From the NCBI GenBank assembly GCA_965199955.1, contig CBDATQ010000001.1:2006284-2070283 (forward strand): a stretch of DNA of 64,000 nt, written 5' to 3'. The translations under genes were made by a program, and so were the position numbers. Positions within the stretch are counted from its first letter, which is position 1, and every line of letters begins with the position of its first letter. Source of the stretch: Spirochaetia bacterium. GTDB taxonomy: Bacteria > Spirochaetota > Spirochaetia > SZUA-6 > Bin103. The notes beneath the pieces are model-generated. The model was given only the letters and a program-made list of their open reading frames with translations. It did not search any database and was not told the origin of the DNA. Positions 9,515 through 46,084 of the stretch are shown in pieces.

Positions 9515-10452
9515 TCAGCGATCGCCGGCGGCCCAAGCGTACGGGCCGGCGCCATGCGCGCGGATCACGGCGGCGATCCCGGCACGCAGATCGGCGGCGA
9601 GGGACCGGTGCGTTTCGATCAGGTTGGACATCTCGTCGGGATCGGCGTGCAGGTCGTACAGCTCCTCGCACGGATCGAAGCGGTGGCGGATGTACTTCCA
9701 GCGGCCGTCGCGGACCATGATCGTCCCCGCCAGCCGTTCCGGGGATTCATCCGGCTCGCGCTCCAGCGCGCGGATCTCGGAGAGCACCGGCGCTGACGGC
9801 GGCTCGGTTCCCGACAGCAGCGCCGGGGCGAGCGAGCGGCCGTGAAATGCGGCCCGGGCCGAGATCCCGGCCAGCTCCAGGAGTGTGGGCACCAAGTCCA
9901 CTCCGCCCACCGGACGCCGCAGCCGGGCGCCGGCGATGATCCGGCCCGCGCAGCAGCCACGGCACCCTGACCGACTGCTCGTACATCATCGACTTCGCGT
10001 ACGGGCCGTGCTCGCCCAGGCTCTTGCCGTGGTCGCTGATGAAGCAGACGAGGGTGTCCCCGGCCGCGCCGGCGTCCTCGAGCGCAGCGAGCAACCGGTC
10101 GAGCTGGCGGTCGACATGGGTGCAGAGCGCGTAGTAGTGCGCGGCGATCCGCCGCATGATCCGCACGCCGAACCGCGGTGCCGCGTGATGGCCCGAGCCG
10201 CGCAGGACGCCGGCTTTCCCGTCAGGTCAGCCCGGTCAGCCAGCTCGCGCGCGCGGGCGAGCAGACCGGCGAGGAGCAGCAGGCGGTTTCCAGGACCGTC
10301 CGCTGCGTGGCAAGACGTTCCAGCGTCGGGGTCTGCACCGCCGGGTCGCCCGCGAAGTCGGTGCTGGCAGCCCGCCACTGGTCGCATATGACCAGCAGGA
10401 TGTTCGGATGCCGGGGCATGCCGCAGAGTGGGGCTAGCGCACACCGCGTCAA
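9515..10452 (-). pseudogene. Sulfatase (formylglycine-dependent) split into three frames
   Basis: Minus ORF 10222..10452 reads NILLVICDQWR...CSPARASWLTG, the CxPxR FGly motif. Minus ORF 9747..10166 reads LVCFISDHGKSLGEHG. Minus ORF 9515..9910 carries the sulfatase C-terminus. At least two frameshifts separate them. Confidence 0.65.
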
Positions 10453-18403: not shown

Positions 18404-20197
18404 GTGACGCAGCGCGAACCGTGGCACGCGGTGGCGACGGACCTGGTGGACGTCGCAGCCGGACGGGCCGCCGCCGACCTGGTGATCCGCGGCGGGCGTT
18501 GGGTCAACGTGCTCACGCGCGAGGCGGTGCCCGGCATGGACATCGCCGTGCGCCGGGGCCGCATCGCCTGCATCGTCGAGGACGCTGGCTACTGCATCGG
18601 CGACGGCACCCGCGTGGTCGAGGCCGAAGGTCGCTTCATGGTGCCTGGCCTGACCGACGGCCACCTGCACGTCGAGAGCAGCATGTGCACGGTCACGGAG
18701 TACGTGCGCGCTGTGCTCCCGCACGGCACCACGGCGATCTTCACCGACCCGCACGAGGTGGCGAACGTCTTCGGCCTCGACGGCGTGCGCATGATGGTGG
18801 CCGAGGCGGAGGCCGCGCCGATACACGTCTTCGTGCAGATGCCCTCCTGCGTGCCGTCCGCGCCGGGGCTGGAGACGCCCGGGGCGCGCATCACGCCGCA
18901 GGACGTGCAGGAGGCGATGACCTGGCCGGGGATCGTCGGCCTGGGCGAGATGATGAATTTCCCCGGCGTGGTCGCCGGCGATCAGCAGATGCACGCCGAG
19001 ATGGCCGCCACCATGCGCGCCGGCAAGACGATCGGCGGCCACTACCCGAGCCTGGAGCTCGACCGGCGCTTTCACGCCTACCTGGCCGGCGGCCCGGCCG
19101 ACGATCACGAGAACACCCGGGAGGTGGACGCCGTCGAGCGCGCCCGCCGCGGCATGCGGCCGATGCTGCGGCTCGGTTCGGCCTGGTACGACGTGGCCGC
19201 GCAGGTCACAGCCATCACGGAGCAGGGGCTCGACCCGCGCCAGTTCATCCTGTGCACGGACGACGTGCACGCCGGCACGCTGGTGGCCGACGGCCACATG
19301 GACCGCGTTCTGCGGCACGCGATCGGGCTGGGCCTCGACCCCCTGATCGCCTTGCAGATGGCCACCATCAACACCGCACAGAACTTCGGCGTCGAGCGCG
19401 ATCTGGGATGCCTGGCGCCGGGGCGCTACGCGGACGTGGTGCTGGTGGAGGACCTCGACGAGTTCGCTGCCGGCACGGTGATCGCCCGCGGCGAGGTGGC
19501 GGCGGAGGAGGGGAGGCTGCTCATCGAGCTGCCGCCCTGGGAGCACGAGGAACGCTTTCGCCGCTCGATCCGCGTGCCGCGGCCGCTGGTCGCCGGCGAC
19601 TTCGCGGTGGATGCCGGCGGCCGCACGGGCAGGGTGACCGCCAACGTGATCGGCGTGATCGAGAACCATGCCGCCACCCGCCACCTGACCGCGAACCTGG
19701 ACGTGCGCGACGGCCGGGTGCAGCCCGACCCGGCGCAGGACGTGCTGCCGCTGGCCCTGGTGGAGCGCCATCACGGGACCGGCAGGGTCGTGAACGGCTT
19801 CGTGCAGGGCTTCGGCTTCGACGCCGTCTGCGGCGTGGCCACCACCGTCGCCCACGACTGCCACCACCTGCTGGTGACCGGGACCTGCGCCGCGAACATG
19901 GCGCAGGCTGCGAACACGCTGGTCGACGTCGCCGGCGGCGTCGCCGTGGTGCGCGACGGCACGCTGACCGCCCTGGTCGAGCTGCCGATCGGCGGGCTGA
20001 TGTCCGACGAGCCGGCCGGCGTGGTCGCCGAGAAGTCGGCCCGCGTGATGCGGGCGCTCGCTGAGTGCGGCCGCGCGCTCAATAACGGCTACATGCAGCT
20101 CAGCCTGCTGGCGCTGGCGGTGATCCCCGAGCTGCGCATCTCCGACCTGGGCCTGGTCGACGTCTCCCGCTTCACCCACATCCCGGTGCTCGTCTGA
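18404..20197 (+). CDS. ade: Adenine deaminase
   Basis: GTG at 18404 lies 9 nt after the ABM stop. LVIRGGRWVNV..., GLTDGHLHVESSM and TDPHEVANV match adenine deaminase. The 915-aa track ORF beginning at 17450 is an upstream run-on through guaD. Confidence 0.8.
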   Translation: MTQREPWHAVATDLVDVAAGRAAADLVIRGGRWVNVLTREAVPGMDIAVRRGRIACIVEDAGYCIGDGTRVVEAEGRFMVPGLTDGHLHVESSMCTVTEYVRAVLPHGTTAIFTDPHEVANVFGLDGVRMMVAEAEAAPIHVFVQMPSCVPSAPGLETPGARITPQDVQEAMTWPGIVGLGEMMNFPGVVAGDQQMHAEMAATMRAGKTIGGHYPSLELDRRFHAYLAGGPADDHENTREVDAVERARRGMRPMLRLGSAWYDVAAQVTAITEQGLDPRQFILCTDDVHAGTLVADGHMDRVLRHAIGLGLDPLIALQMATINTAQNFGVERDLGCLAPGRYADVVLVEDLDEFAAGTVIARGEVAAEEGRLLIELPPWEHEERFRRSIRVPRPLVAGDFAVDAGGRTGRVTANVIGVIENHAATRHLTANLDVRDGRVQPDPAQDVLPLALVERHHGTGRVVNGFVQGFGFDAVCGVATTVAHDCHHLLVTGTCAANMAQAANTLVDVAGGVAVVRDGTLTALVELPIGGLMSDEPAGVVAEKSARVMRALAECGRALNNGYMQLSLLALAVIPELRISDLGLVDVSRFTHIPVLV

Positions 20198-20211
20198 CGC
20201 CTCCTCCCGCG

Positions 20212-21635
20212 TCACATGCCCCAGACCGTGACCGGCGCGCCGTCTCCGGACGGTGGACGGCGGAAGATCTTCTCCTCCCAGGTCCGCTCCGGCGGACGGT
20301 CGAACACGATCAGGTGGCCCGCCTCGGCCTCGCACCGGTCCACGTAGACGCGGGTCTGCTTCAGCCCCTCCGCGACGGCCCGCTCCAGCTCGCCGCGCCG
20401 CACCTTGCACTCCACCACGAACCGCCGCTCGCGCCCGCCCTGCGGCCACACGATCAGCAGGTCCGTGCGTCCGCGCCGAGCGCGTACTCCCGCTCGATCC
20501 GTCCGCCGCCGCCAGCGACCCGCTGCAGGTGCGCCTGCAGCAGCAACTGCGGCCCGGCCTCATGGTAGCGCTCGAAGCGCTGCACCCAGTGCTCGGAGTG
20601 CTCCCGGAAGAACGCCTGGACGCCGCGATCAGCCCCTCCACGTCCAGCCGCCCGTCCGCGCCCACGTACCACGCCACCCGCTGCGGCAACCCCGCCTGCA
20701 CCGCGTAGTTCAGATGGCGCGGCACCACTTCGGCGTAGATCGGGTTGGCGATGCGCGGCGTGCCGTCCGCCTCCTGAGCCACCAGCCCCAGGTTGCAGGC
20801 GTAGGCGACGTCCTCGGAGGTCCACGCGTGCCGGTCGGGCGCCGGCCAGGATCGGTTCGATCACCCGCCGCGCGCGCTCCTCGCGCAGCTTGTCCGCCTG
20901 GTTGTCGAGGTGGGTCACCCGCGCCAGGAGCAGCCGCTCCTGCGCCTCCAGGATCGCCTGATCGGTGATCGGGCGGGAGCGGTCGCGGCCGGCCTTGTCA
21001 TCGAAGCACGCTTCCCGGCACAGCGCGTTCACCAGCCATGGCTGCCCGGCGGTGCGTGCCACGATCAGGCGCAACGCCTCCTCCGTGAACGCTTGCCCGG
21101 TCGCCGCCGTGTGCTGCGCCAGCAGCGCCCACACCTCCCGCTCCGAGAAGTCGCCCAGCCGCAGCGACTTGGCCTTGATGTTGAAGGCGCTGCCGCCGAG
21201 CACCATGCGGTTCTCGGCCATCGAGTGGATGCGGTAGTCGCGCACGTCGCGCACCCCGCACAGGACGATGCTGTGCGGGAAGCGCGCCGGCCGGTCGACG
21301 TAGCCGGTGCGCAACTGCCGCAGCACGGCCAGCAGGGTGTCCCCCACCAGCGCGTCGATCTCGTCGATCAGCAACACCAGCGGACGCGGGTCGGCCATGC
21401 TCCAACGCAGCAACGCGCGCCACAGCACCTTGCCCGGGCCCACTCGCTCCAGCACTCCGGGCCAGACATCCTCCAGCGACTCGTCGCCTAGATTCACGCT
21501 TGCCTGCAGCGCCAGTTCGGTGTGGGTCGAAGTCGATGAGACCCACCAGGGTGTGGTAGCGGCCGCGATGGGAGTAGCTGGTGCGGCCATCATGGTAGCG
21601 CGCAGTCCCTTGACCCCGTGGCAGCATCGGAACAT
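20212..21635 (-). pseudogene. AAA_35-like ATPase with a PD-(D/E)XK-like C-terminal region, at least two frameshifts
   Basis: The N-terminal 270 aa of minus ORF 20454..21635 read LVLLIDEIDAL...GGSAFNIKAKSLRLGDFSEREVWALLAQHT, the SPFNI-type AAA-like domain. The continuation ANPIYAEVVPRHLNYAVQAG..., FREHSEHWVQRFERYH and RFVVECKVRRGELE lies in other frames (20212..20451 and the N-terminus of ORF 18359..20782). Confidence 0.5.
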
Positions 21636-21662
21636 CCTCGCTCACCGAGCGGAGAGAACGAC

Positions 21663-22280
21663 ATGGAACGGGTCTTCGTCTACTGGGACAACTCCAACAT
21701 ATTCATCAGCGCACAACAGGTGGCCATCGAGCGCGAGGGGGAAGCGGCCCGGTACCGGACTCGTATCCACTTTCAGAATCTGTTGACACTGGCGTGTGCC
21801 GATCGTTCGATCGAGCATGCAATCGCCGTCGGCTCCATACCTCCCGAGCTGAGATACGTCTGGAACCGCATGGAGAACGAGGGTGTGACCGTTCAATTGC
21901 TCGAACGCGGTGAGATGCACCACCGGGAACAGGGAGTGGATCAGGCGCTGCAGACGGCGATGCTGCGCGACGCCTTCGATTACAACGGAGATCCCGGTAT
22001 AGTCGTCATGCTTACGGGCGACGGCAGCGGGTTCGACGATGGCGTCGGCTTCCACGCGGACCTCGAACGCATGCGACGCCGCGGCTGGCGCGTCGAAGTT
22101 CTTTCGTGGCGACACAGTTGCAACCGCGGCATGCGGAAATGGGCGGAGCAGAATGGTACGTTCATTGCGCTGGACGACCACTACGAGAGTGTGACGTTCC
22201 TTGAGCCGCCCGCTCCGGGCCGGCCGCTTGCGGATCCGCGCGCAGCCACTGCTGTCGACCTTAGCCGGCTTCCCTCATGA
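21663..22280 (+). CDS. NYN-domain (LabA/limkain-type predicted RNase) protein
   Basis: MERVFVYWDNSNIF, GDPGIVVMLTGDGSGFDDG and RRGWRVEVLSW are the NYN core motifs. Confidence 0.7.
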   Translation: MERVFVYWDNSNIFISAQQVAIEREGEAARYRTRIHFQNLLTLACADRSIEHAIAVGSIPPELRYVWNRMENEGVTVQLLERGEMHHREQGVDQALQTAMLRDAFDYNGDPGIVVMLTGDGSGFDDGVGFHADLERMRRRGWRVEVLSWRHSCNRGMRKWAEQNGTFIALDDHYESVTFLEPPAPGRPLADPRAATAVDLSRLPS

Positions 22281-22544
22281 GGCGATATGAGCACGGGGTC
22301 GCGCAGCCGTGTCGATGGCGACAGGACCTCCAGCACCTGCGCCAGAGGGCGCAGTAACCGAACGCTCGTGAGATCCACCGGAATATCCCACTGCTCCCGG
22401 TCATACGCTACGTGGACGCGGCCATGGCTGCCTTTGCCGTGACGCCTTCTGTGCAGTTCCAGGGCATCCGTCTGGTATACGCCCGACCCATGACTGCATG
22501 AGCCCGCGACCTCTCCGCCCTCGTCGCGAGCAATCGCACGACCA

Positions 22545-24863
22545 TTACTCCATGACTCTCACCGCGATGGGCTGATCGGGAGCAATCGGCGTGTCGCGTG
22601 CCACGATTCCCCGGTGCAGGTCGAGCAGGACGCGTTCCGGGGTCATGGGGGCGTCGAGGGTCAGCTCGGCATCGGGGCGGAAGGCCTTCATGGCGTTGCG
22701 AAGGGCGAAGAAGACGCCGATGCCGTACATCAACGGCGGTTCGCCGACCGCCTTGGCTCCGAGCGGGCCGTAGGGGTTGTCCGCAGGCTCCAGGAACTTC
22801 ACGGCCATGTCGTCGGGCATGAAGTAGACGTCCGGGGCCTTGTAGGTGGACAGCGCGTGGGACAGGCAACGGCCTTCGGCGTCCCACCGCAGATCCTCCA
22901 TGGTCATCCAGCCCATGCCCTGGGCCAGGCCGCCCTCGACCTGGCCCAGGTCCACGGTGGGATTGATGGTGCGGCCGAGGTCGTGGACGATCTTCACTTG
23001 GTCGACCGCGTAGGTGCCGCGCAGGCAGTCGACGGTCACCTCGAACACGGCGGTGCCGTAGACGTGGTAGGCGAAGGGGTGGCCGTGCTCGCGCTCCTCG
23101 TCGTAGTGGAGTCCCGGGGTCGTGTAGTAGCCGTGCGCCGAGAGGCGTTTGCGCGCGCGGTAGGTGAGGCCCACCAGGTCGGTCCAGCTCATGCCCGCAG
23201 GCTCGCCGCCGACTCGAATCTGCTCATCGGAGACGGTGATCGTGGCCGGGTCGGCGCTCCCGATCTCCCGCGCCGCCACCTCACGCATGCCGTCGAGAAT
23301 GGCCTCGACGGCGATGATCGCCGCGTTGCCGTTCAGGTCGGTGGTGGCGCTGGCGGCGCTCGGCGACATGTTGGCGACCCTGGTGGTATTGGTGCTCTCG
23401 ACGCGTACCCGCCGCCGTGAGATGCCGAGGGTGCGCGCCACCACGGAGGCGACGTTGCTGCTGATGCCCTGGCCCATCTCGATGCCGCCGGTGGTCACGC
23501 TCACGCTGCCGTCGGCATAGACGTGGACCAGGGCGTTGCCCTGGTTGAGGTGGGTCTTGGTGAACGAGATGCCGAAGCAGACCGGCATCAGGGCGCAGCC
23601 CTTCTTGATCGCGAAGTTGTCTCGGTTGAACGCCGTCACCCGCCTGCGGATCCCATCGACGTCGAACGCCAACTCCAGCTCGTCCCAGGTCCGCTCGGCG
23701 CGGCTTCGCTCCACGACCTGCCCGTAGTGGAAGACGTCGCCGTCGCGCAGCAGGTTGGCGCGCTGGATCGCGGAGGCCTCGATCCCCATCGCGTCGGCGG
23801 CCCTGGCGATCGCGGCCTCGATTACGTACATGCCCTGCGGGCCGCCGAAGCCGCGGAAGGCGGTGTGCGGCTGCAGGTTGGTCCGGCACGGCGCGGCGGT
23901 CACGCGCACGTTGGGGATGAAATAGGCGTTGGTGGCGTGGAACAGCGTGCGCGCCAGCACCGGCGGCGACAGGTCGGCGAAGGCGCCGGAGTTCTGGAAG
24001 AAGGTGGCCTGGTAGGCAAGGATCCTGCCGTCCGCGGTCAACCCGATCCGGAAGTCGGCGGAGTAGGGATGGCGCTTGCCGGTCATGCGGATGTCGTCCA
24101 GCCGGTTCAGCACCAGCTCTACCGGCGCGTCCAGGTCCGCGGCGGCCAGCGCGGCCATCGCCGCCCAGTGGGTGGCCTGGTCCTCCTTGCCGCCGAAGCC
24201 GCCGCCGAGCCGTTTCACGTCCACCTCGATCTTGTGCATCGGCCGGCCGAGCACGGCCGACACGACGTGCTGTACCGCTGCCGGCCCCTGGGTGGAGGAG
24301 AACACCCGCATCGCTCCATCCTCACCGGGCACGGCGCGGGCGCGCTGCGTCTCCAGGTAGAGGTGCTCCTGGCCGCCGATTTCGCAGCGTCCGTCGACCA
24401 CCACGTCGCAATCGCCCCAGGCGCCCGCGACGTCGCCGGTCGCCATGGTGCGTGGCGGATGGATCAGGTCGCCGTTCGCGAACGCCTCGCGCGGGTCGAC
24501 TACCACCGGCAGATCGTCGATCTCGACCTCGACCAGGTCGCGAGCCTGCCGCGCCTGGTGCGCCGTGCGGGCCACGACAAGGGCGATGGAATGGCCGATG
24601 AAGCACACCTCGCGCTCCACCAGCAGCTCCTCGTCCTCGATGATCGGGCCGAAGCGGTTGACGCCGGGAATGTCGGCGGCGGTGAGCACCGCCACCACGC
24701 CGGGTGCGGCGCTCGCCGCGGCGGTGTCGAGCCGGACGATGGTGCCGTGCGCCTTCGGGGAGCCGACCACCGCGGCGTGCAGCATCCCCGGCGGGGGCGG
24801 CACGTCGTCCACGTACTGCGGCTCGCCGCGCACGTGCAGGTGGGAGTCGATGTGGTGGTTCAC
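22545..24863 (-). CDS. xdhB: Xanthine dehydrogenase molybdopterin-binding subunit
   Basis: GTG start overlaps the xdhA stop (GTGA). HLHVRGEPQYVDDVP and the aldehyde-oxidase/Xdh molybdopterin domains run to VRVME. The upstream part of the 1185-aa track ORF is run-on across xdhA. Confidence 0.85.
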   Translation of the reverse strand: MNHHIDSHLHVRGEPQYVDDVPPPPGMLHAAVVGSPKAHGTIVRLDTAAASAAPGVVAVLTAADIPGVNRFGPIIEDEELLVEREVCFIGHSIALVVARTAHQARQARDLVEVEIDDLPVVVDPREAFANGDLIHPPRTMATGDVAGAWGDCDVVVDGRCEIGGQEHLYLETQRARAVPGEDGAMRVFSSTQGPAAVQHVVSAVLGRPMHKIEVDVKRLGGGFGGKEDQATHWAAMAALAAADLDAPVELVLNRLDDIRMTGKRHPYSADFRIGLTADGRILAYQATFFQNSGAFADLSPPVLARTLFHATNAYFIPNVRVTAAPCRTNLQPHTAFRGFGGPQGMYVIEAAIARAADAMGIEASAIQRANLLRDGDVFHYGQVVERSRAERTWDELELAFDVDGIRRRVTAFNRDNFAIKKGCALMPVCFGISFTKTHLNQGNALVHVYADGSVSVTTGGIEMGQGISSNVASVVARTLGISRRRVRVESTNTTRVANMSPSAASATTDLNGNAAIIAVEAILDGMREVAAREIGSADPATITVSDEQIRVGGEPAGMSWTDLVGLTYRARKRLSAHGYYTTPGLHYDEEREHGHPFAYHVYGTAVFEVTVDCLRGTYAVDQVKIVHDLGRTINPTVDLGQVEGGLAQGMGWMTMEDLRWDAEGRCLSHALSTYKAPDVYFMPDDMAVKFLEPADNPYGPLGAKAVGEPPLMYGIGVFFALRNAMKAFRPDAELTLDAPMTPERVLLDLHRGIVARDTPIAPDQPIAVRVME

Positions 24864-26305
24864 GACAGGCCCCGGGCGTAGAACGCTTCCACGGCGAAGC
24901 GCTCGGGAAACAGGGTCACGAAATGGGCGATCAGCAATTGCCGCGCCAGCAGGCGCTTGTATTCGGCCGAGCCGCGCACGTCCGTGATCGGCGCGATCTC
25001 CTGCTGGGACATGCGCACGGCCTCCCACGCCGTTTCCAGGTCCAGGGCGCGGCCGCGCAGCGCCTGCGAGGTCTCGCGCAGGTAGAGCGGGATGGGCGCC
25101 ACGCCGCCCAGGCTGAGGTGCGCGTCGGCGATGGTGTCCCCGGTGCAGCGGATCGAGCAGGCGCTGTTGACCGACGCGATGTCCAGGCAGGTCCGCTTGG
25201 AGACCTTTTCGAAATTGACCTGGGCGGCGGCCGGATCGGCGAACGCCACCTCGGTGAGCAACTCGCCGGGCCGCAGGTCCATCTGCTTGTAGCCGCGGTA
25301 GAACTCCCGCAGCGGGACCGATCGCCGCGTGCCGCCGTCGTCCAGCACGACGCGCGCGTCCAGGGCCAGCAGGAGGGCGGTGAAGTCCCCGATCGGGGAG
25401 GCGTTGACGATGTTGCCGGCCAGGGTGGCGCGGTTGCGGATCTGCCAGGAGGCGATGAGGTGGTTGAACGCCCCGATGCGGGGCAGCGCCTCGACGACGC
25501 GCGGGTCGGCGCCGAACTCCTCGAAGGTGGTGAGCGCGCCGACGCGGAGCTCGCCATCGCGGACGCGAATGCGTTTGAGCGCCGGCCGCCGGTTGAGCAC
25601 CTCGACGCGGCGGTCCGGGATTTCCTCGCCCTGTTGCACGTACAGGTCGGTGCCGCCGGCGATGCGCACCTCCGGCTCTGCATCGGCGTCGGGTGCAGGT
25701 GTCTCTTCCTGCAGCGCCCGCAACCGCTCCGGGATGGTCGTGAAGTACGCGGGGATCGCTCCCGCCGCGGCCATCGTCATTACTCGATCGCCGCCGGTCC
25801 CGTCGAGCCGGCTGCCGATCCGGCGGGCCAGCGTGTCGGCGCAGTCCTTCAGCGAGCGGTAGCCGGTGCATCTGCACAGGTGGCCGCTCAGGGCGTATTT
25901 CACGTTTTCGAGGGAGAGCCCCCTGGTTGCGTCCAGCATCAGCCCGTGCAGGGACACCACGATGCCGGGCGTGCAGAACCCGCACTGCGTGCCGCCGTGC
26001 TCGACGACGGCCTCCTGCGCGGGGGTGAGCCCGGCTTCCAGGTTGCACCCCTCGATCGTGACCACGTGCCGGCCGTGCACTTCCGCCAGCGGCACCAGGC
26101 AAGAGGTGACCGGCTGGTAGCGGACCGCGTCGCCTGCAAGCTCTCCTATCAGGACGGCGCAGGCGCCGCAGTCGCCCTCCTTGCAGCCTTCCTTGGTGCC
26201 GGTCAGCCGCTCGCGATTCCGCAGGAAGTCCAGCAGCAGCAGCCCCGCCGGCAAGGACGTCTCCATCAGCCGGTCGTTGAGAATGAACCGAGTGCTCGGC
26301 GCCAT
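24860..26305 (-). CDS. xdhA: Xanthine dehydrogenase small subunit (2Fe-2S + FAD-binding)
   Basis: GCKEGDCGAC, GGTQCGFCTPG and HLCRCTGY ferredoxin motifs, followed by a FAD-binding CO-dehydrogenase-flavoprotein-like domain. Confidence 0.85.
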   Translation of the reverse strand: MAPSTRFILNDRLMETSLPAGLLLLDFLRNRERLTGTKEGCKEGDCGACAVLIGELAGDAVRYQPVTSCLVPLAEVHGRHVVTIEGCNLEAGLTPAQEAVVEHGGTQCGFCTPGIVVSLHGLMLDATRGLSLENVKYALSGHLCRCTGYRSLKDCADTLARRIGSRLDGTGGDRVMTMAAAGAIPAYFTTIPERLRALQEETPAPDADAEPEVRIAGGTDLYVQQGEEIPDRRVEVLNRRPALKRIRVRDGELRVGALTTFEEFGADPRVVEALPRIGAFNHLIASWQIRNRATLAGNIVNASPIGDFTALLLALDARVVLDDGGTRRSVPLREFYRGYKQMDLRPGELLTEVAFADPAAAQVNFEKVSKRTCLDIASVNSACSIRCTGDTIADAHLSLGGVAPIPLYLRETSQALRGRALDLETAWEAVRMSQQEIAPITDVRGSAEYKRLLARQLLIAHFVTLFPERFAVEAFYARGLS

Positions 26306-26311
26306 CGCCTG

Positions 26312-27277
26312 CTACCGGCGGTTGCGCTCGCGAAGGATCTGCGCGGCGATGCTGATGGCGATCTCCTCCGGCGTCTGGCTGCCGATGTCCAGACCCACCG
26401 GAGCGTGGATGCGCTCGATCGTCTCCGGGGAGACCCCTTCCTCCCGCAGGAGGGAGAATATCCGCTCGATCTTCTTCTTGCCGCCCATCAAGCCGACGAA
26501 CGGGCAGGGCAGGGCCGTGACGCCGAGGAGGGCGCGTACGTCGGTACGGTAGTCGGCGGTCATCACCACCACGGCGGTGGACTCTGGATGGGCGATCGAG
26601 GGTCCTGCTTGGTCGTAGTCCCTGACGATGGAAAGGCCACCGACCACGGTCTCGTGGTCTCGGCTGACCACGTTCGTGCGGGTGTCGAAGACCCGCACCC
26701 GGTAGCCCAGTGGCGACATCACTTCTCCCAGCGCCGCTGCGCAGTGGCCGCCGCCGACGATCGCGAGGCGGCGCCGATTGAGGAGGTCCTCCCGGTACCG
26801 CCAGGCGCCATGCGCCTCCGTGAAGGTGACGCGCGGCGCGTCGAAGCCGGCTCCGATCTCCGCCAGCCGCAGGCCGGCGTCGTCGATCTCGATCCAGCCG
26901 CTCTGATCGTGTCGGACTCTGTCCACGATGGTGCGCACGCTGGCCAGGTCGCGTGGTCCGTCCAGCACGCAGAAGATGTTGGTCTGGCTTCCCTCGCAGA
27001 TCAGGCCGGATTGATCACCGGACGCTTTCTCACTATGCACCAGCGTCTGCTTCGCCGGCCGATAGTTGCCGCACTGCAGCAGCGCCCTCGCTTGGTCGAC
27101 CAAACGGTGCTCCATGGCACCACCACCGATCGTGCCGAACAGCTCTCCCGAATCGGCGACCAGCAGCTTGGCGCCCGTGGTCCCAGGTGAGCCGCGGGTA
27201 TGTGCGGCCACGCAGGCGACGAACACCCGGCTGCCCGAACCGAGGTGCCCGTGAACCCGCTCCCAGAACGCGATCAT
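26312..27277 (-). CDS. xdhC: XdhC/CoxI family molybdenum-cofactor insertion accessory protein
   Basis: 321-aa ORF with the XdhC N-domain and a Rossmann-like LAIVGGGHCAAAL. Confidence 0.75.
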   Translation of the reverse strand: MIAFWERVHGHLGSGSRVFVACVAAHTRGSPGTTGAKLLVADSGELFGTIGGGAMEHRLVDQARALLQCGNYRPAKQTLVHSEKASGDQSGLICEGSQTNIFCVLDGPRDLASVRTIVDRVRHDQSGWIEIDDAGLRLAEIGAGFDAPRVTFTEAHGAWRYREDLLNRRRLAIVGGGHCAAALGEVMSPLGYRVRVFDTRTNVVSRDHETVVGGLSIVRDYDQAGPSIAHPESTAVVVMTADYRTDVRALLGVTALPCPFVGLMGGKKKIERIFSLLREEGVSPETIERIHAPVGLDIGSQTPEEIAISIAAQILRERNRR

Positions 27278-27386
27278 GTCTTCAGCTTAAGGAGGTCGCC
27301 CCACCTCGTCACGCTGTCCTGCGCGGCGGTGTGGATTCGGGGGCGGAGCAGGACAGACGGATGTGCGAGCGAGTAGGATCAAAACC

Positions 27387-27584
27387 ATGGCGTTGACCGA
27401 ACCCCGTTTCGTCCTTGATGAAGCCGGCAACAAGGTTGCCGTCGTGCTGCCGATCGATGTCTACGAAGAGCTCGTCGAACAGCTCGAGCAGCAGGACGAC
27501 CTCAAGGCGATCGAAGAAGCGATGCAGGACTCGGAACAGATCCCCTGGGAGCAGGTCAAGACGGAGCTCGGTGTATCGGATTGA
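27387..27584 (+). CDS. Type II antitoxin (Phd/YefM- or RelB-like) paired with the downstream RelE/ParE toxin
   Basis: The 65-aa product MALTEPRFVLDEAGNKVAVVLPIDVYEELVEQLEQQDDLKAIEEAMQ is acidic. It overlaps the toxin start by 12 nt. Confidence 0.55.
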   Translation: MALTEPRFVLDEAGNKVAVVLPIDVYEELVEQLEQQDDLKAIEEAMQDSEQIPWEQVKTELGVSD

Positions 27585-27821
27585 ATTCGTGCCAGCGGCA
27601 CGGCGCGACCTCAAGCGCATCAACGATCCCCTCAGGACACGGATTGTCACAGCGATCGATGCTCTGAGCACCAACCCTCGGCCATCGGGATGCCGCAAGC
27701 TGGCAGGCCGCCATTCTGGCGCATTCGCGTTCAGGACTACCGCATCATCTATCAGATCGTCGATGACAGGCTGCTCGTGACCGTGATTCGCGTCCGCCAT
27801 CGGCGATCCGTTTACCGCTGA
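27573..27821 (+). pseudogene. RelE/ParE-family toxin with a single-nucleotide frameshift
   Basis: VYRIEFVPAARRDLKRI...IDALSTNPRPSGCRKLAG then switches frame to RPPFWRIRVQDYRIIYQIVDDRLLVTVIRVRHRRSVYR. One C appears to be missing in GGCCGCCATTC at about 27711. Confidence 0.6.
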
Positions 27822-27833
27822 GCTCCTTCAAGC

Positions 27834-28549
27834 CTACACGCCGAGCCACGTCGCCCTGACGTCGGGACTCCGGTCAAGCTCCGCCGCGGTGCCGTGCCAG
27901 CGGATGCGGCCCTTGCCGAGCACGTAGACGTGCTCGGCAAGCCCGATGGCGAACGGGTAGTTCTGCTCCACCAGCAGCATCGTCATGCCGGCCGCCCGCA
28001 GGTCGTGGACGATTCCGGCGATGCGCTCGACGACGATCGGCGCCAGCCCCTCGGTCGGCTCGTCCAGGATCAGCAGGCGCGGTGACAGGGTGATGGCGCG
28101 CGCGATGGCCAGCATCTGCTGCTCGCCGCCGCTCAGCTCGTTGCCGCGGTTGCGGCGCCGCTCGGCCAGCAGGGGGAACCGCTCGTAGAGGTCCTCCACC
28201 GGGACGCGGTGGCGGCCGGTGCCCCGACGCCGGTTCCGGTTTAGGTTCAGGTGCTCGTCCACCGTGAGCGAGGCGAAGATGCCGCGCTCCTCGGGTACAT
28301 AGCTGACTCCCCGCCGCGCGACGCGATGCGGCGGCAGGCGCTCGATCGCCTCGCCAGCGAACCGGATGGTGCCGCGCGCCGCGGCGGCGATGCCCATGAT
28401 CGACTTGAGCGCGGTCGACTTTCCTGCGCCGTTGCGTCCGAGCAGCGCGACGACACTGCCGCCCGCCACCTCCAGCGACACGTTCTGCAGGACGTGGCTT
28501 CGCCCGTAGTAGGTGTCCACCCCCTCCATGGACAGCAGCGGGTCCGCCA

Positions 28550-28550
<1 letters not shown>
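27834..28550 (-). CDS. livF: Branched-chain amino acid ABC transporter ATP-binding protein
   Basis: GRNGAGKST Walker A, LSGGEQQ signature and LILDEP Walker B. Confidence 0.8.
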
Positions 28551-29295
<745 letters not shown>

Positions 29296-44439: not shown

Positions 44440-45360
44440 TCAGGCGCCGTTCCTGACCACGTAGGCGGTCGAAAGCAGTTCGAGCGCATCATCGAACACG
44501 GTCTCGGTGTCGGCAAACCGCACCGCGGAAATGGCCGCGCACTCGGTGGCCGCGCCTTTCGACAGGAACGATCCGGAGACCGGCGAGACGTCGGAGTAGT
44601 CGCGGCCGACGGCCAGCTTGATGTAGTCGCTGGCGGGCGGAAACAGGACGCCACGGGTGGGGTCGGCCGCGACCCAGCCGGACCGCGGATGGAGCACCTC
44701 CAGCCAGGCGTGGGTCTCTCCCACTTGTCCCGTGAGCAGCCCGCTGACGTAGCGGCAGGGGATGCTCAGCGCGCGCAGCATGCCCAGGGCCAGGTGGGTC
44801 TTGTCCTGGCACACTCCTTCCCTGGTTGCCAGCACCTGCTCGGCAGTGGTCGTGACCCCGGTGGCGCCGCGCCGGTATCCGATCTCGCGGTGCACCCACT
44901 CGACGGTCGCACGTACCGCCGCCAGCAGGGAGCCGGCGTCGCCAGCGACCTCCTGCGACACCGCCGCGACGCCTTCGGGATCGATCAGCGGCGACCTGAA
45001 CGCGAAGTCGAAGCCGTCCGGCAGATCGGTGACCTCGGCCAAGGCGGAGTCCTCGGGCGCCGGCGCCGCATCAGCCAGCCGGATCCGTCCCGCCGTGGCG
45101 ACCACGAGGCGGTCGTGCGGCGCGAAGATGCGGACGCGCTGCACGCGGTTGCCGAAGCGGTCCCGGTACTCCACGGAGCGGCCTTCGGGCCGGGTCCACA
45201 TCTGCTGGCCCATCGGCTCCTGGGACGCGTCGGCAAGGGGAAAGATGCGGAGCTGATTGTCGTTGTGCAGGACCCGGTCGGAGTAACCGTAGTGCGCTGC
45301 GTAGATATACGACGCCGTGACCGTCTGTGCCGCTAGCTGAGCACCCATGTGGGCTTGCAC
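44440..45360 (-). CDS. Transglutaminase-like (bacterial TGase N-domain + papain-like Cys-His-Asp core) protein
   Basis: CQDKTHLALGMLRALSIP (Cys), GETHAWLEV (His) and AADPTRG (Asp), with an N-terminal Bact_transglu_N-like region. Confidence 0.75.
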   Translation of the reverse strand: MQAHMGAQLAAQTVTASYIYAAHYGYSDRVLHNDNQLRIFPLADASQEPMGQQMWTRPEGRSVEYRDRFGNRVQRVRIFAPHDRLVVATAGRIRLADAAPAPEDSALAEVTDLPDGFDFAFRSPLIDPEGVAAVSQEVAGDAGSLLAAVRATVEWVHREIGYRRGATGVTTTAEQVLATREGVCQDKTHLALGMLRALSIPCRYVSGLLTGQVGETHAWLEVLHPRSGWVAADPTRGVLFPPASDYIKLAVGRDYSDVSPVSGSFLSKGAATECAAISAVRFADTETVFDDALELLSTAYVVRNGA

Positions 45361-45563
45361 AGTCCCCCCGAAGAGTTGTTGGTGATGCGGCTGCCTTCCA
45401 GCGCCACCCGGGGCAGGCCGCCGGGGAACACCGTGACCTCGCCGTCCGCGCCCTGAATGGCGAATACCCGCAGGTCCACGTGGCGTGGCTCCAGCATGCC
45501 GTTCCGCTCATTCAAGACGACGTGTTGGGAGAAGTCCAGCGCGTCTTGCGCGATGAACATCAA
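45333..45563 (-). pseudogene. C-terminal approximately 55 codons of a circularly permuted ATP-grasp (type 2) gene; the rest is absent
   Basis: VDLRVFAIQGADGEVTVFPGGLPRVALEGSRITNNSSGG..KPTWVL is the characteristic C-terminus of CP ATP-grasp proteins. Upstream sequence is occupied by the vapC 3' end. Confidence 0.45.
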
Positions 45564-46084
45564 TCCTGCGCGGCTGCTTCCCGAGTGTCGATATCGTCGA
45601 TCATCAGAACGTCGATGTCAGGGACGGATCCGAAGGCTCGGTCCGTGGTCACCAGGTGGTCGGCCCCGAGGCGTAGTGCCGTCGCGAGAATGACGGAGTC
45701 GGTCGTGAGCAGGCCGTGCTCTGATTGCAGGTCGAGCGCTCGGTCAAAGTCCGCGCGGCTGTGCGGTGCGATCCGCAGTCCCATGTCCTGCAAGGCGTCC
45801 AGCTTGGTTCGGTAGACGTGCAGCCGCCGCGCGAGCTCGGGGCGCGAGGCGAGCTTGCGCGCGGGGTTGGAGCCCGTAAGCTTCCCGGTCGCTCGCGCCT
45901 CGATGAGCATGAGTCGATGGCACACTTCCAGGAGCGCCGCAAAGGGCAGGATGCCGACGATCGTCGCCTGCGTGCAGCGAGCCAGCAACGCCTGTGCCTG
46001 TTCGGAGTATCCTGCTGCCGCATAGATCAGGATGTTCGCGTCGATGCAGCACCGCGACCCCGTGGGAATCGCCTCGACCGTCAC
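45560..46084 (-). CDS. vapC: PIN-domain toxin
   Basis: CIDANILIYAAAG plus later acidic residues (TTDSVILATALRLGADHLVTTDRAF) give the PIN fold pattern. The start overlaps the vapB stop (ATGA). Confidence 0.7.
   Translation of the reverse strand: MTVEAIPTGSRCCIDANILIYAAAGYSEQAQALLARCTQATIVGILPFAALLEVCHRLMLIEARATGKLTGSNPARKLASRPELARRLHVYRTKLDALQDMGLRIAPHSRADFDRALDLQSEHGLLTTDSVILATALRLGADHLVTTDRAFGSVPDIDVLMIDDIDTREAAAQD

Follow-up and report, generated by a model that had tools for sequence, protein, structure and literature searches.

The window, a stretch of 64,000 nucleotides from the genome of a Spirochaetia bacterium, contains between two purine-catabolism genes a short region where one gene has decayed and another has arrived. 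As the original prediction had placed it, the site is bounded by an adenine deaminase gene and xdhB, both intact. The first (18404..20197, plus strand) matches Pfam Adenine_deam_C with 185 bits and corresponds to a 597-aa gene call in locus L157. The second (22545..24863, minus strand) encodes an xdhB-like molybdopterin subunit of xanthine dehydrogenase with the Pfam domains Ald_Xan_dh_C, MoCoBD_1 and MoCoBD_2, and is syntenic with loci L001 and L013 of sister genomes. Between them lie the remnant of an AAA+ ATPase gene with a predicted PD-(D/E)XK tail (20212-21520, minus strand), convergent with the adenine deaminase gene, a relic of an ISAzo13-family transposase gene (21523..21596, minus strand), and an intact NYN-domain gene (21663..22280, plus strand) that is divergent to the remnant.

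In its intact form, the ATPase comprises 541 aa. With the intact orthologue P0001 as a tblastn query, the remnant resolves into four collinear pieces on the minus strand that together cover residues 107-541, are 86-96% identical to intact orthologues and are separated by three 1-bp indels. Piece 1 (20838..21520; residues 107-333; tblastn 21518..20838, 92% identity) keeps the SAFNI motif, GQPWLVNAL and Walker B (LLIDEID). The truncation breakpoint lies at the 5' end of this piece, position 21520, where the 92% blastn homology to L013 and L001 ends. Piece 2 (20615..20836; residues 334-407; 86%) contains PIYAEVVPRHLNY and is followed by piece 3 (20475..20618; residues 407-454; 96%). Piece 4 (20212..20466; residues 458-541; tblastn 20466..20215, 89%) holds the predicted PD-(D/E)XK core (TDLLIV ... 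FVVECKV) together with the original stop codon at 20212-20214. The peptide landmarks GGSAFNIKAKSL, PIYAEVVPRHLNY and FVVECKVRRGELE are all found on this strand in three different frames, bearing out the original reading, which saw here the decayed gene of an AAA_35-like ATPase whose tail resembles PD-(D/E)XK nucleases.

That reading had called for at least two frameshifts, and a MAFFT DNA alignment to three orthologous loci (L013, L001 and L015) identifies exactly three, each a single base. Frameshift 1, at 20839, adds one base, turning CC into CCC (GGCGCCCGACC versus GGCA-CCGACC in the three orthologues). Frameshift 2, between 20621 and 20620, removes one base, turning TT into T (GCGGCG-TCCAGG versus GCGTCGTTCCAGG), and frameshift 3, between 20476 and 20475, removes another (CTCGG-CGCGG versus CTGGGTCGCGG). 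The first 106 codons of the gene (318 bp) are also gone, and with them the Walker A motif (consensus GxxxxGK[ST]; PRQTGKT, residues 56-62 of P0001); across the whole window, tblastn with P0001 detected nothing that corresponds to residues 1-106. This N-terminal loss had escaped the earlier reading.

The intact orthologue P0001 passes the Pfam cut-offs for both AAA_22 (34.2 bits, cut-off 27) and AAA_35 (27.6 bits, cut-off 27), and the ancestral gene can thus be placed in this family. Even when its frames are corrected, the remnant fails both, scoring 17.6 bits for AAA_22 (cut-off 27) with no match to AAA_35. It is not a functional AAA_35/AAA_22 P-loop ATPase. A rough three-taxon estimate puts dN/dS at ~0.37 on the window branch, as against 0.10 and 0.24 for the two intact orthologues. 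With three indels and a 5' truncation relative to syntenic intact orthologues, and with dN/dS raised on its branch, 20212-21520 on the minus strand is a pseudogene that retains the 3' four-fifths of a single copy; the gene family in question is stand-alone and multi-copy. The branch value is raised yet far under 1, which means that the gene was inactivated recently or that the estimate is too rough.

Comparison with relatives indicates how the truncation came about. In both L013 and L001, the order xdhC-xdhA-xdhB is followed by an intact 541-aa ATPase gene, so that intact orthologues are present in relatives at the same site directly downstream of xdhB; the NYN gene is absent there. DNA homology between the window and these sister loci covers xdhB, breaks off, and restarts at codon 107 of the ATPase with 92% identity. 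From ~22570 to 21520, blastn finds no homology in L013, L001 or L015. The segment 21521..22544, which is without counterpart in the sister genomes, occupies the place where these have the xdhB-ATPase spacer and the initial 318 bp of the ATPase gene. The GC content of the segment is 0.63, compared with 0.70-0.72 in the neighbouring genes and 0.69 in the whole window. At third codon positions, GC is 0.73 in the NYN gene and 0.93-0.95 in xdhB, the adenine deaminase gene and the remnant. An Rfam scan of 19900-22900 gave no match, and a homologue search with the 55-aa junction peptide was empty. The original prediction had suggested a look for flanking repeats near 20200 and 22300; neither repeats nor target-site duplications were seen around the insert beyond short matches at chance level. 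The small inserted island, partly dead, that had been envisaged at this site holds up insofar as foreign DNA does lie between the purine-catabolism genes; only the ~1-kb NYN segment, however, was inserted. Since the ATPase was resident at the site and was destroyed by that insertion, the locus is not a half-dead island of two genes.

The frameshifts might instead be indel errors of sequencing or assembly in what is really an intact conserved hypothetical gene. All three are single-base changes, and assembly errors could account for some, given that two lie in short homopolymers. Moreover, independent short-read contigs stop on either side, at 20419 and 21344, flanking all three frameshift sites (20475-20839); contigs found via the neighbouring ABM gene likewise end at 20419, and for the ORFs of 393 aa and 79 aa, exact-protein look-ups returned no record. 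The loss of 106 codons, however, is independent of the indels. Over 21344-29192, the window is matched with 100% identity by contigs assembled from several further read sets. These contigs hence run across xdhB, the NYN gene and the breakpoint, which confirms the junction independently. The strain is present in runs such as SRR33960551 and SRR33991076. Removing the frameshifts would still leave an ATPase with neither Walker A nor a start, and the long neighbouring genes of the window (600-1600 aa) are uninterrupted, indicating an assembly with no high indel rate. An artefact is accordingly a very improbable explanation.

Directly abutting the breakpoint is the transposase relic, which encodes DGRTSYSHRGRYHTLVGLIDFDPH. 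Its counterpart at locus L078 is an insertion sequence (IS) copy, where it aligns with residues 54-77 of the N-terminal ORF (blastn 79% over 71 nt, E=1e-10; tblastn E=1e-6); the ORF adjoining that N-terminal ORF matches PF07592 (DDE_Tnp_ISAZ013) with E=1e-115. Because of its position at the breakpoint, an ISAzo13-type element was probably involved in the rearrangement; as the relic amounts to only ~24 codons, we infer this role rather than observe it. The stretch beginning GTARYHDGRTSYSHRG had also been considered as the N-terminal part of the ATPase. It was rejected, as tblastn shows no homology to the family, and it belongs to the ISAzo13-type relic.

The NYN gene is intact, and divergent to the remnant, as originally described. 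Its 205-aa ORF runs from an ATG at 21663 to a stop codon at 22278-22280, with a Shine-Dalgarno-like GGAGA motif 7 nt 5' of the start, and the same protein in the same context was found again in several independent read-set assemblies. A scan around the gene showed no promoter or terminator. The protein exceeds the threshold of Pfam NYN (PF01936; 37.3 bits, cut-off 24.2) and keeps every column that is invariant among 37 homologues. Its AF2 model (pLDDT 74.7) has as its top Foldseek matches 2qip (E=1e-6) and the NYN domain of Marf1 (E=1.4e-4). Fold and Pfam match are thus common to the window protein and the NYN/LabA-like proteins such as VPA0982 (2qip) and Marf1 (5yaa), as are the acidic residues D9 in the N-terminal strand, D93 and D120; D126 is conserved as well. 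Two features set the window family apart, namely TGDG, in which Gly takes the position of the second Asp that is normal for (S/T)GDxD, and a conserved C-terminal extension of ~50 aa. There are 1637 homologues, the best 120 of which are 76-89% identical, along with only two distant matches in viral contigs. What the homologues share with the window is the coding sequence and not the flanks, and no conserved non-coding flank was found across loci. In several genomes the gene is a compositional outlier. The NYN gene was probably acquired horizontally as a stand-alone gene and is probably expressed as a solitary, putatively metal-dependent RNase-like protein.

ATPase and nuclease pairs are common in defence systems, and the original prediction had interpreted the two genes as such a pairing, devoted to defence or RNA surveillance. 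On that account, both would have arrived together as a two-gene island whose ATPase half has since died. Their adjacency and divergent orientation fit, and at two other NYN loci an unrelated ATPase-nuclease gene lies within 4 kb. In the sister genomes, however, the site is occupied by the intact ATPase, and NYN is missing. No NYN homologue lies within 6 kb of an ATPase family member at any of 79 ATPase loci, and no member of the ATPase family occurs within 4 kb of the NYN gene at any of 60 NYN loci. Where one genome carries both genes, as in CBDCDL010000002.1 (a Spirochaetia MAG) and OZ242205.1 (Vicinamibacterales), they are ~0.4 Mb or more apart. PADLOC gave no match for the remnant, the intact orthologue P0001 or the homologue P0123, and for the window NYN protein only a chance-level match to JetC (E=0.018). 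The difference in GC3 (0.73 in NYN, 0.93 in the remnant) and the replacement of the 5' end of the ATPase by the NYN segment also speak against a common arrival, which is left with hardly any probability. The ATPase and NYN genes are accidental neighbours and not a defence pair, and NYN does not work with the ATPase. Consequently, the locus is a case of ordinary gene decay.

Another possibility is that NYN is no functional partner and travels instead as the passenger of a mobile element, or as a selfish cassette, with a preference for sites in or near ATPase-nuclease genes. The ISAzo13-type relic at the junction and the outlying composition of NYN in several genomes are compatible with this idea. 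In addition, three of the NYN contexts looked at have an ATPase-nuclease gene within 4 kb: the window itself, L101 and L094. At L101, which carries the closest NYN homologue, the gene sits just 3' of the DUF4143-type tail of a different ATPase (Pfam 20 bits, sub-threshold against a cut-off of 28.1), while at L094 a DUF1703-type ATPase is 3.8 kb away. These contexts allow for a loose tendency of NYN genes to land near ATPase-nuclease genes. Against a targeted mechanism, the flanks of NYN differ from locus to locus, the other loci have neither a transposase nor an integrase alongside NYN, and the IS proteins of L078 matched none of these loci in tblastn. For the majority of the 60 loci the neighbours are ordinary; in five, NYN lies within the ATP synthase operon. 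No neighbour recurs that would hint at a partner. Finally, the three ATPases belong to different families that are abundant in these genomes. Targeted insertion is improbable.

The ATPase family itself is large and multi-copy. It has >8000 close homologues, and clustering at 50% identity yields 5136 clusters with E<=1e-3 and 996 with E<=1e-30. In the reference genomes, 234 relatives were found, a single chromosome of 5.1 Mb carrying at least 8 copies; in 2.9 million viral contigs, the family is absent. Copies are 72-94% identical across MAGs labelled Spirochaetia, Vicinamibacterales and Aggregatilineales, and they often occur in tandem arrays with fragments nearby. Similarity in the flanks is mostly confined to orthologous-looking loci of different genomes. 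As paralogues have no flank in common, the gene is not a transposon, and no transposase recurs beside it. Nor is there a conserved partner gene, the commonest neighbours being present at no more than 14 of the 79 loci and in variable positions. Judged by eye from sequence, these neighbours appear to be ABC-transporter components, a sulfatase and a dehydrogenase. Conservation among paralogues is fairly even, without a hypervariable patch that would suggest a sensor.

To place the family, its domains may be compared with known systems. Intact orthologues resemble AAA_35 (PF14516) and AAA_22 (PF13401) in their Walker A (PRQTGKT) and Walker B (DEID) motifs, to which the family adds a predicted C-terminal PD-(D/E)XK domain; the window copy differs in being without the Walker A region. 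NCBI names members of AAA_35/AAA_22 'ATP-binding protein' or 'AAA-like domain-containing protein', and a full-text literature search for PF14516 returned no paper. Searches of NCBIfam gave no match and sequence searches of PDB gave no informative one. For the tail, D459 and E476 hardly vary in an alignment of family members as distant as 33% identity, and the AF2 secondary structure (H428-441, E446-449, E460-466, E469-479, H484-501, E506-512) fits the alpha-beta-beta-beta-alpha-beta core of PD-(D/E)XK nucleases. Pfam NucS_C and PDDEXK_9 (PF08011) match the remnant and P0001 below threshold, PF08011 with 13.5-19.4 bits against a cut-off of 25.5. Another likeness is to DUF1703 (AAA-ATPase_like PF09820 plus PDDEXK_9 PF08011), which has an N-terminal ATPase and a C-terminal PD-(D/E)XK nuclease, the order predicted for the window family. 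Both families consist of solo genes with many paralogues per genome and partial copies, and for the symbiont Cardinium cCpun an expansion of DUF1703 is described that reached 25 paralogues (PMC6387759). In a profile comparison, the ATPase domains of the two families align with 85.6% probability, their S-x-FNI motif included. Sequence similarity is nonetheless remote, with PF09820 not found by HMM and PF08011 sub-threshold, and, unlike DUF1703, the ATPase paralogues are unusually alike (72-94%) and common to MAGs with different phylum-level labels. The archaeal Walker-type ATPases PABY2304 (2qen) and SSO1545 (2fna) and the AAA+ clade of ORC/Cdc6, MuB and TnsC are 12-19% identical, and none has a nuclease tail. 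The likeness to these proteins is one of fold only and hence is no proof of shared function.

The history that very probably underlies the locus is that a resident ATPase gene was beheaded by ~1 kb of foreign DNA bearing an intact NYN gene and was then frameshifted, the two genes being unpaired throughout. In the order of events that we infer, an intact ATPase copy would have lain directly downstream of xdhB, as it does in close relatives. A rearrangement in the lineage of the window would then have swapped the spacer and the first 106 codons for ~1 kb of compositionally foreign DNA, probably with the participation of an ISAzo13-type insertion sequence. The foreign DNA would have brought in the horizontally acquired, stand-alone NYN gene, and the headless, promoterless ATPase gene may subsequently have drifted, gaining its three 1-bp indels. 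Besides the NYN insertion and the IS, a block of ~5 kb (Sel1, GerE, HIU hydrolase, uricase) has been lost in the history of this species and its sister species.

What is curious here is not the dead copy but the ATPase family, in which a solo ORC/Cdc6-like AAA+ domain is joined to a predicted PD-(D/E)XK nuclease and dead fragments are frequent. That both families are ~75-90% identical across very different taxonomic labels suggests recent horizontal spread under strong purifying selection. The mix of taxon labels may hint at a host-associated source, for instance a sponge microbiome; no conclusion above depends on that. A bolder proposal sees in the ATPase a new self-contained immune or selfish family that senses nucleic acid and spreads horizontally within one microbial community, with the solo NYN gene, just as conserved and mobile, as another element of that kind that occasionally inserts into the ATPase; this is unlikely. 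The locus offers a clean, datable case of gene death by insertion at a variable spot of a purine-catabolism cluster. It also illustrates that an ATPase-nuclease gene adjoining an RNase-like gene is insufficient for calling a defence island. It points to two families, one multi-copy and of AAA+/PD-(D/E)XK type, the other a small NYN family. If either of them does act in mobile-element conflict or symbiosis, loci such as this one would record its turnover.

The ATPase locus at 20212-21520 (minus strand) is an ordinary pseudogene produced by insertion and deletion, and the NYN gene that adjoins it is an unrelated, recently acquired solo gene. The three peptide landmarks named in the original prediction lie on the minus strand from 20212 to about 21635, one in each frame. 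The frame-corrected translation has over 8000 close homologues; the top matches are 541-residue proteins at about 90% identity that carry Pfam AAA_22 and AAA_35. Using an intact 541-residue orthologue (P0001) as a tblastn query, the remnant resolves into four collinear minus-strand pieces at 21518..20838 (residues 107-333), 20836..20615 (334-407), 20618..20475 (407-454) and 20466..20215 (458-541). Aligned at the DNA level with three orthologous loci, the remnant is seen to owe its frame changes to single-base indels: one base gained at 20839, one lost at 20621/20620 and one lost at 20476/20475. In the same tblastn search, residues 1-106, including the Walker A motif (PRQTGKT), find no match anywhere in the window. 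The original prediction of a decayed ATPase with at least two frameshifts is thus borne out and sharpened to three frameshifts plus a 5' truncation. When Nei-Gojobori distances are crudely partitioned among three taxa, dN/dS on the window branch is approximately 0.37 versus 0.10 and 0.24 in two intact orthologues, consistent with a fairly recent relaxation of selection.

Over 21344-29192 the window is matched at 100% identity by contigs assembled from separate read sets, and others cover it up to 20419; these give independent confirmation of the truncation junction, the NYN gene and the remnant's 3' end. All three indels fall between these covered stretches, in 20420-21343, and exact look-ups of the remnant ORFs return no match. 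Long neighbouring genes in the window are uninterrupted, which speaks against indel errors being frequent overall. Same-strain contigs built from short reads stop at 20419 and 21344, both within the remnant, as expected if the genome or community contains repeats of the ATPase family. A second decayed gene, sulfatase-like and frameshifted, lies at about 9515-10452 (minus strand) and is readable in three frames (MPRHPNILLVICDQW..., ...VCFISDHGKSLGEHGPY... and ...YDLHADPDEMSNL...), with an internal part apparently missing; gene decay in the window is therefore not confined to the ATPase. Elsewhere, a 174-residue ORF with a PIN-like N-terminal motif, CCIDANILIYAAAGY (45560-46084, minus strand), and a 76-residue ORF directly downstream (45333-45563) may form a toxin-antitoxin pair.

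Exact look-ups of two intact ATPase orthologues yielded two comparison loci, L001 on a contig of a metagenome-assembled genome (MAG) labelled Spirochaetia and L013 on a metagenome contig. Both present xdhC, xdhA, xdhB and an intact 541-residue ATPase gene in that order on the same strand, and the NYN gene is absent from both. By blastn, the window is 88-92% identical to these relatives along the xdh operon to about 22570-22608, shows no homology to them from there to 21520, and is again 92% identical from ATPase codon 107 through the stop codon. Together, the synteny of the xdh operon and the resumed homology mark the ATPase as the resident gene here. What is new in the window's lineage is the segment 21521-22544, which stands in place of an approximately 54-bp spacer and the first 318 bp of the ATPase gene. 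It is compositionally foreign: GC3 is 0.73 in the NYN gene versus 0.93-0.95 in xdhB, the adenine deaminase gene and the ATPase remnant, in a setting where GC is 69% for the whole window and 70-72% for the surrounding genes. The region around the ATPase is plastic in other ways too. The ATPase and adenine deaminase genes are 5-6 kb apart in L001 and a further locus, L015, and the block between them in L001 (Sel1, GerE, HIU hydrolase, uricase and other genes) is missing from the window (20189-20211 compared with L001 9630-14520 and L015). An Xre-RES toxin-antitoxin pair lies to one side of the ATPase in L001 and to the other in L013. L001 also has a fragmented adenine deaminase gene with a group II intron reverse transcriptase beside it.

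A search for repeats flanking the insert, as suggested in the original prediction, found none. The 74 bases abutting the ATPase breakpoint (21596..21523, minus strand) encode DGRTSYSHRGRYHTLVGLIDFDPH, which resembles residues 54-77 of the N-terminal ORF of an ISAzo13-family insertion sequence in locus L078 (blastn, 79% identity over 71 nt, E=1e-10; tblastn, E=1e-6); the adjoining ORF in L078 matches PF07592 at E=1e-115. Since an internal piece of a transposase gene is joined directly to ATPase codon 107, an insertion sequence was probably once present at, or within, the 5' end of that gene, and later deletions would have trimmed both.

The NYN gene (21663-22280, plus strand) is intact as first proposed, with a Pfam NYN match of 37.3 bits against a cut-off of 24.2 and every invariant column retained in an alignment of 37 sequences. 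The closest structural matches to its AF2 model (pLDDT 74.7) are the NYN/LabA-like protein 2qip and the Marf1 NYN domain. Similarity between its homologues and the window is limited to the coding sequence, from ATG to stop. In five metagenome loci (L111, L113, L121, L127 and L128), a homologue with 57-64% identity sits within an apparent F1 ATP synthase operon between atpG-like and atpD-like genes, with gaps of about 30 bp on either side; these gene and operon names were judged from sequences only.

The proposal that the two genes form an ATPase-nuclease pair for defence or RNA surveillance is not supported. A scan of one genome per species gave 234 ATPase relatives, and none of the best 79 loci has an NYN homologue within 6 kb on each side. 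Conversely, an HMM of the ATPase family has no match within 4 kb on each side of 60 NYN loci from genomes and metagenomes. Where one genome has both genes they are far apart: on one Spirochaetia contig the NYN gene is at about 0.74 Mb, against 1.16-3.67 Mb for the listed ATPase copies, and on Vicinamibacterales OZ242205.1 the two are at 3.33 Mb and 5.94 Mb. No PADLOC model matches either protein. In locus L101, which holds the closest homologue of the window NYN protein (89% identity), 72 bp separate that NYN gene from the end of an upstream DUF4143-like ATPase tail (3-248; sub-threshold in Pfam at 20 bits against 28.1). In locus L094 (457-2238 and 10005-12618), an NYN gene has a DUF1703-type ATPase-nuclease 3.8 kb away, and cas1 and cas3 at about 3.4-4.4 kb. 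The ATPase neighbours in L101 and L094 offer a weak lead only, because their families and arrangements differ.

The ATPase family is large, with 5136 clusters (50% identity) at E<=1e-3 and 996 at E<=1e-30, and has no match in 2.9 million viral contigs. The MAGs that carry members at 72-94% identity bear the labels Spirochaetia, Vicinamibacterales/Acidobacteria and Aggregatilineales. The protein is conserved fairly evenly along its length; in the tail, D459 and E476 of a D...ExK motif are nearly invariant down to 33% identity, and the Pfam matches to NucS_C and PDDEXK_9 are both sub-threshold. In a profile comparison, the ATPase domain, including the S-x-FNI motif, aligns with a DUF1703-type protein (PF09820 and PF08011) at 85.6% probability. 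DUF1703 proteins share this architecture and have multiplied in a symbiont, Cardinium cCpun, which has 25 paralogous copies (PMC6387759). By analogy with fold relatives, one guess is that the nuclease could be gated when the protein binds nucleic acid, or oligomerises on it, in an ATP-dependent way. The ATPase family is multi-copy, with at least eight loci in the 5.1-Mb chromosome OZ219914.1 and head-to-tail arrays of three full copies in L018 (6773-11692) and five copies, one partial, within about 14 kb in L093 (6053-12711 and 18738-20333). L093 additionally has DDE transposases and a DruA-like gene. Of the 79 loci, 12 have fragments of other copies nearby, and a nonsense or frameshift mutation is present in two of the 79 copies. 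In one cluster at 90% identity (P0034, 112 members), most of those listed are 274-residue forms on many different contigs, which could reflect either a truncated allele that is widespread or a split gene call that recurs. The ATPase gene has no recurrent neighbour and its paralogues no common flank, most flank similarity being between orthologous-looking loci of different genomes; a transposon is ruled out by this lack of shared flanks. The locus itself is of low interest, and moderate interest attaches to the two uncharacterised families, ATPase and NYN, to which it points.
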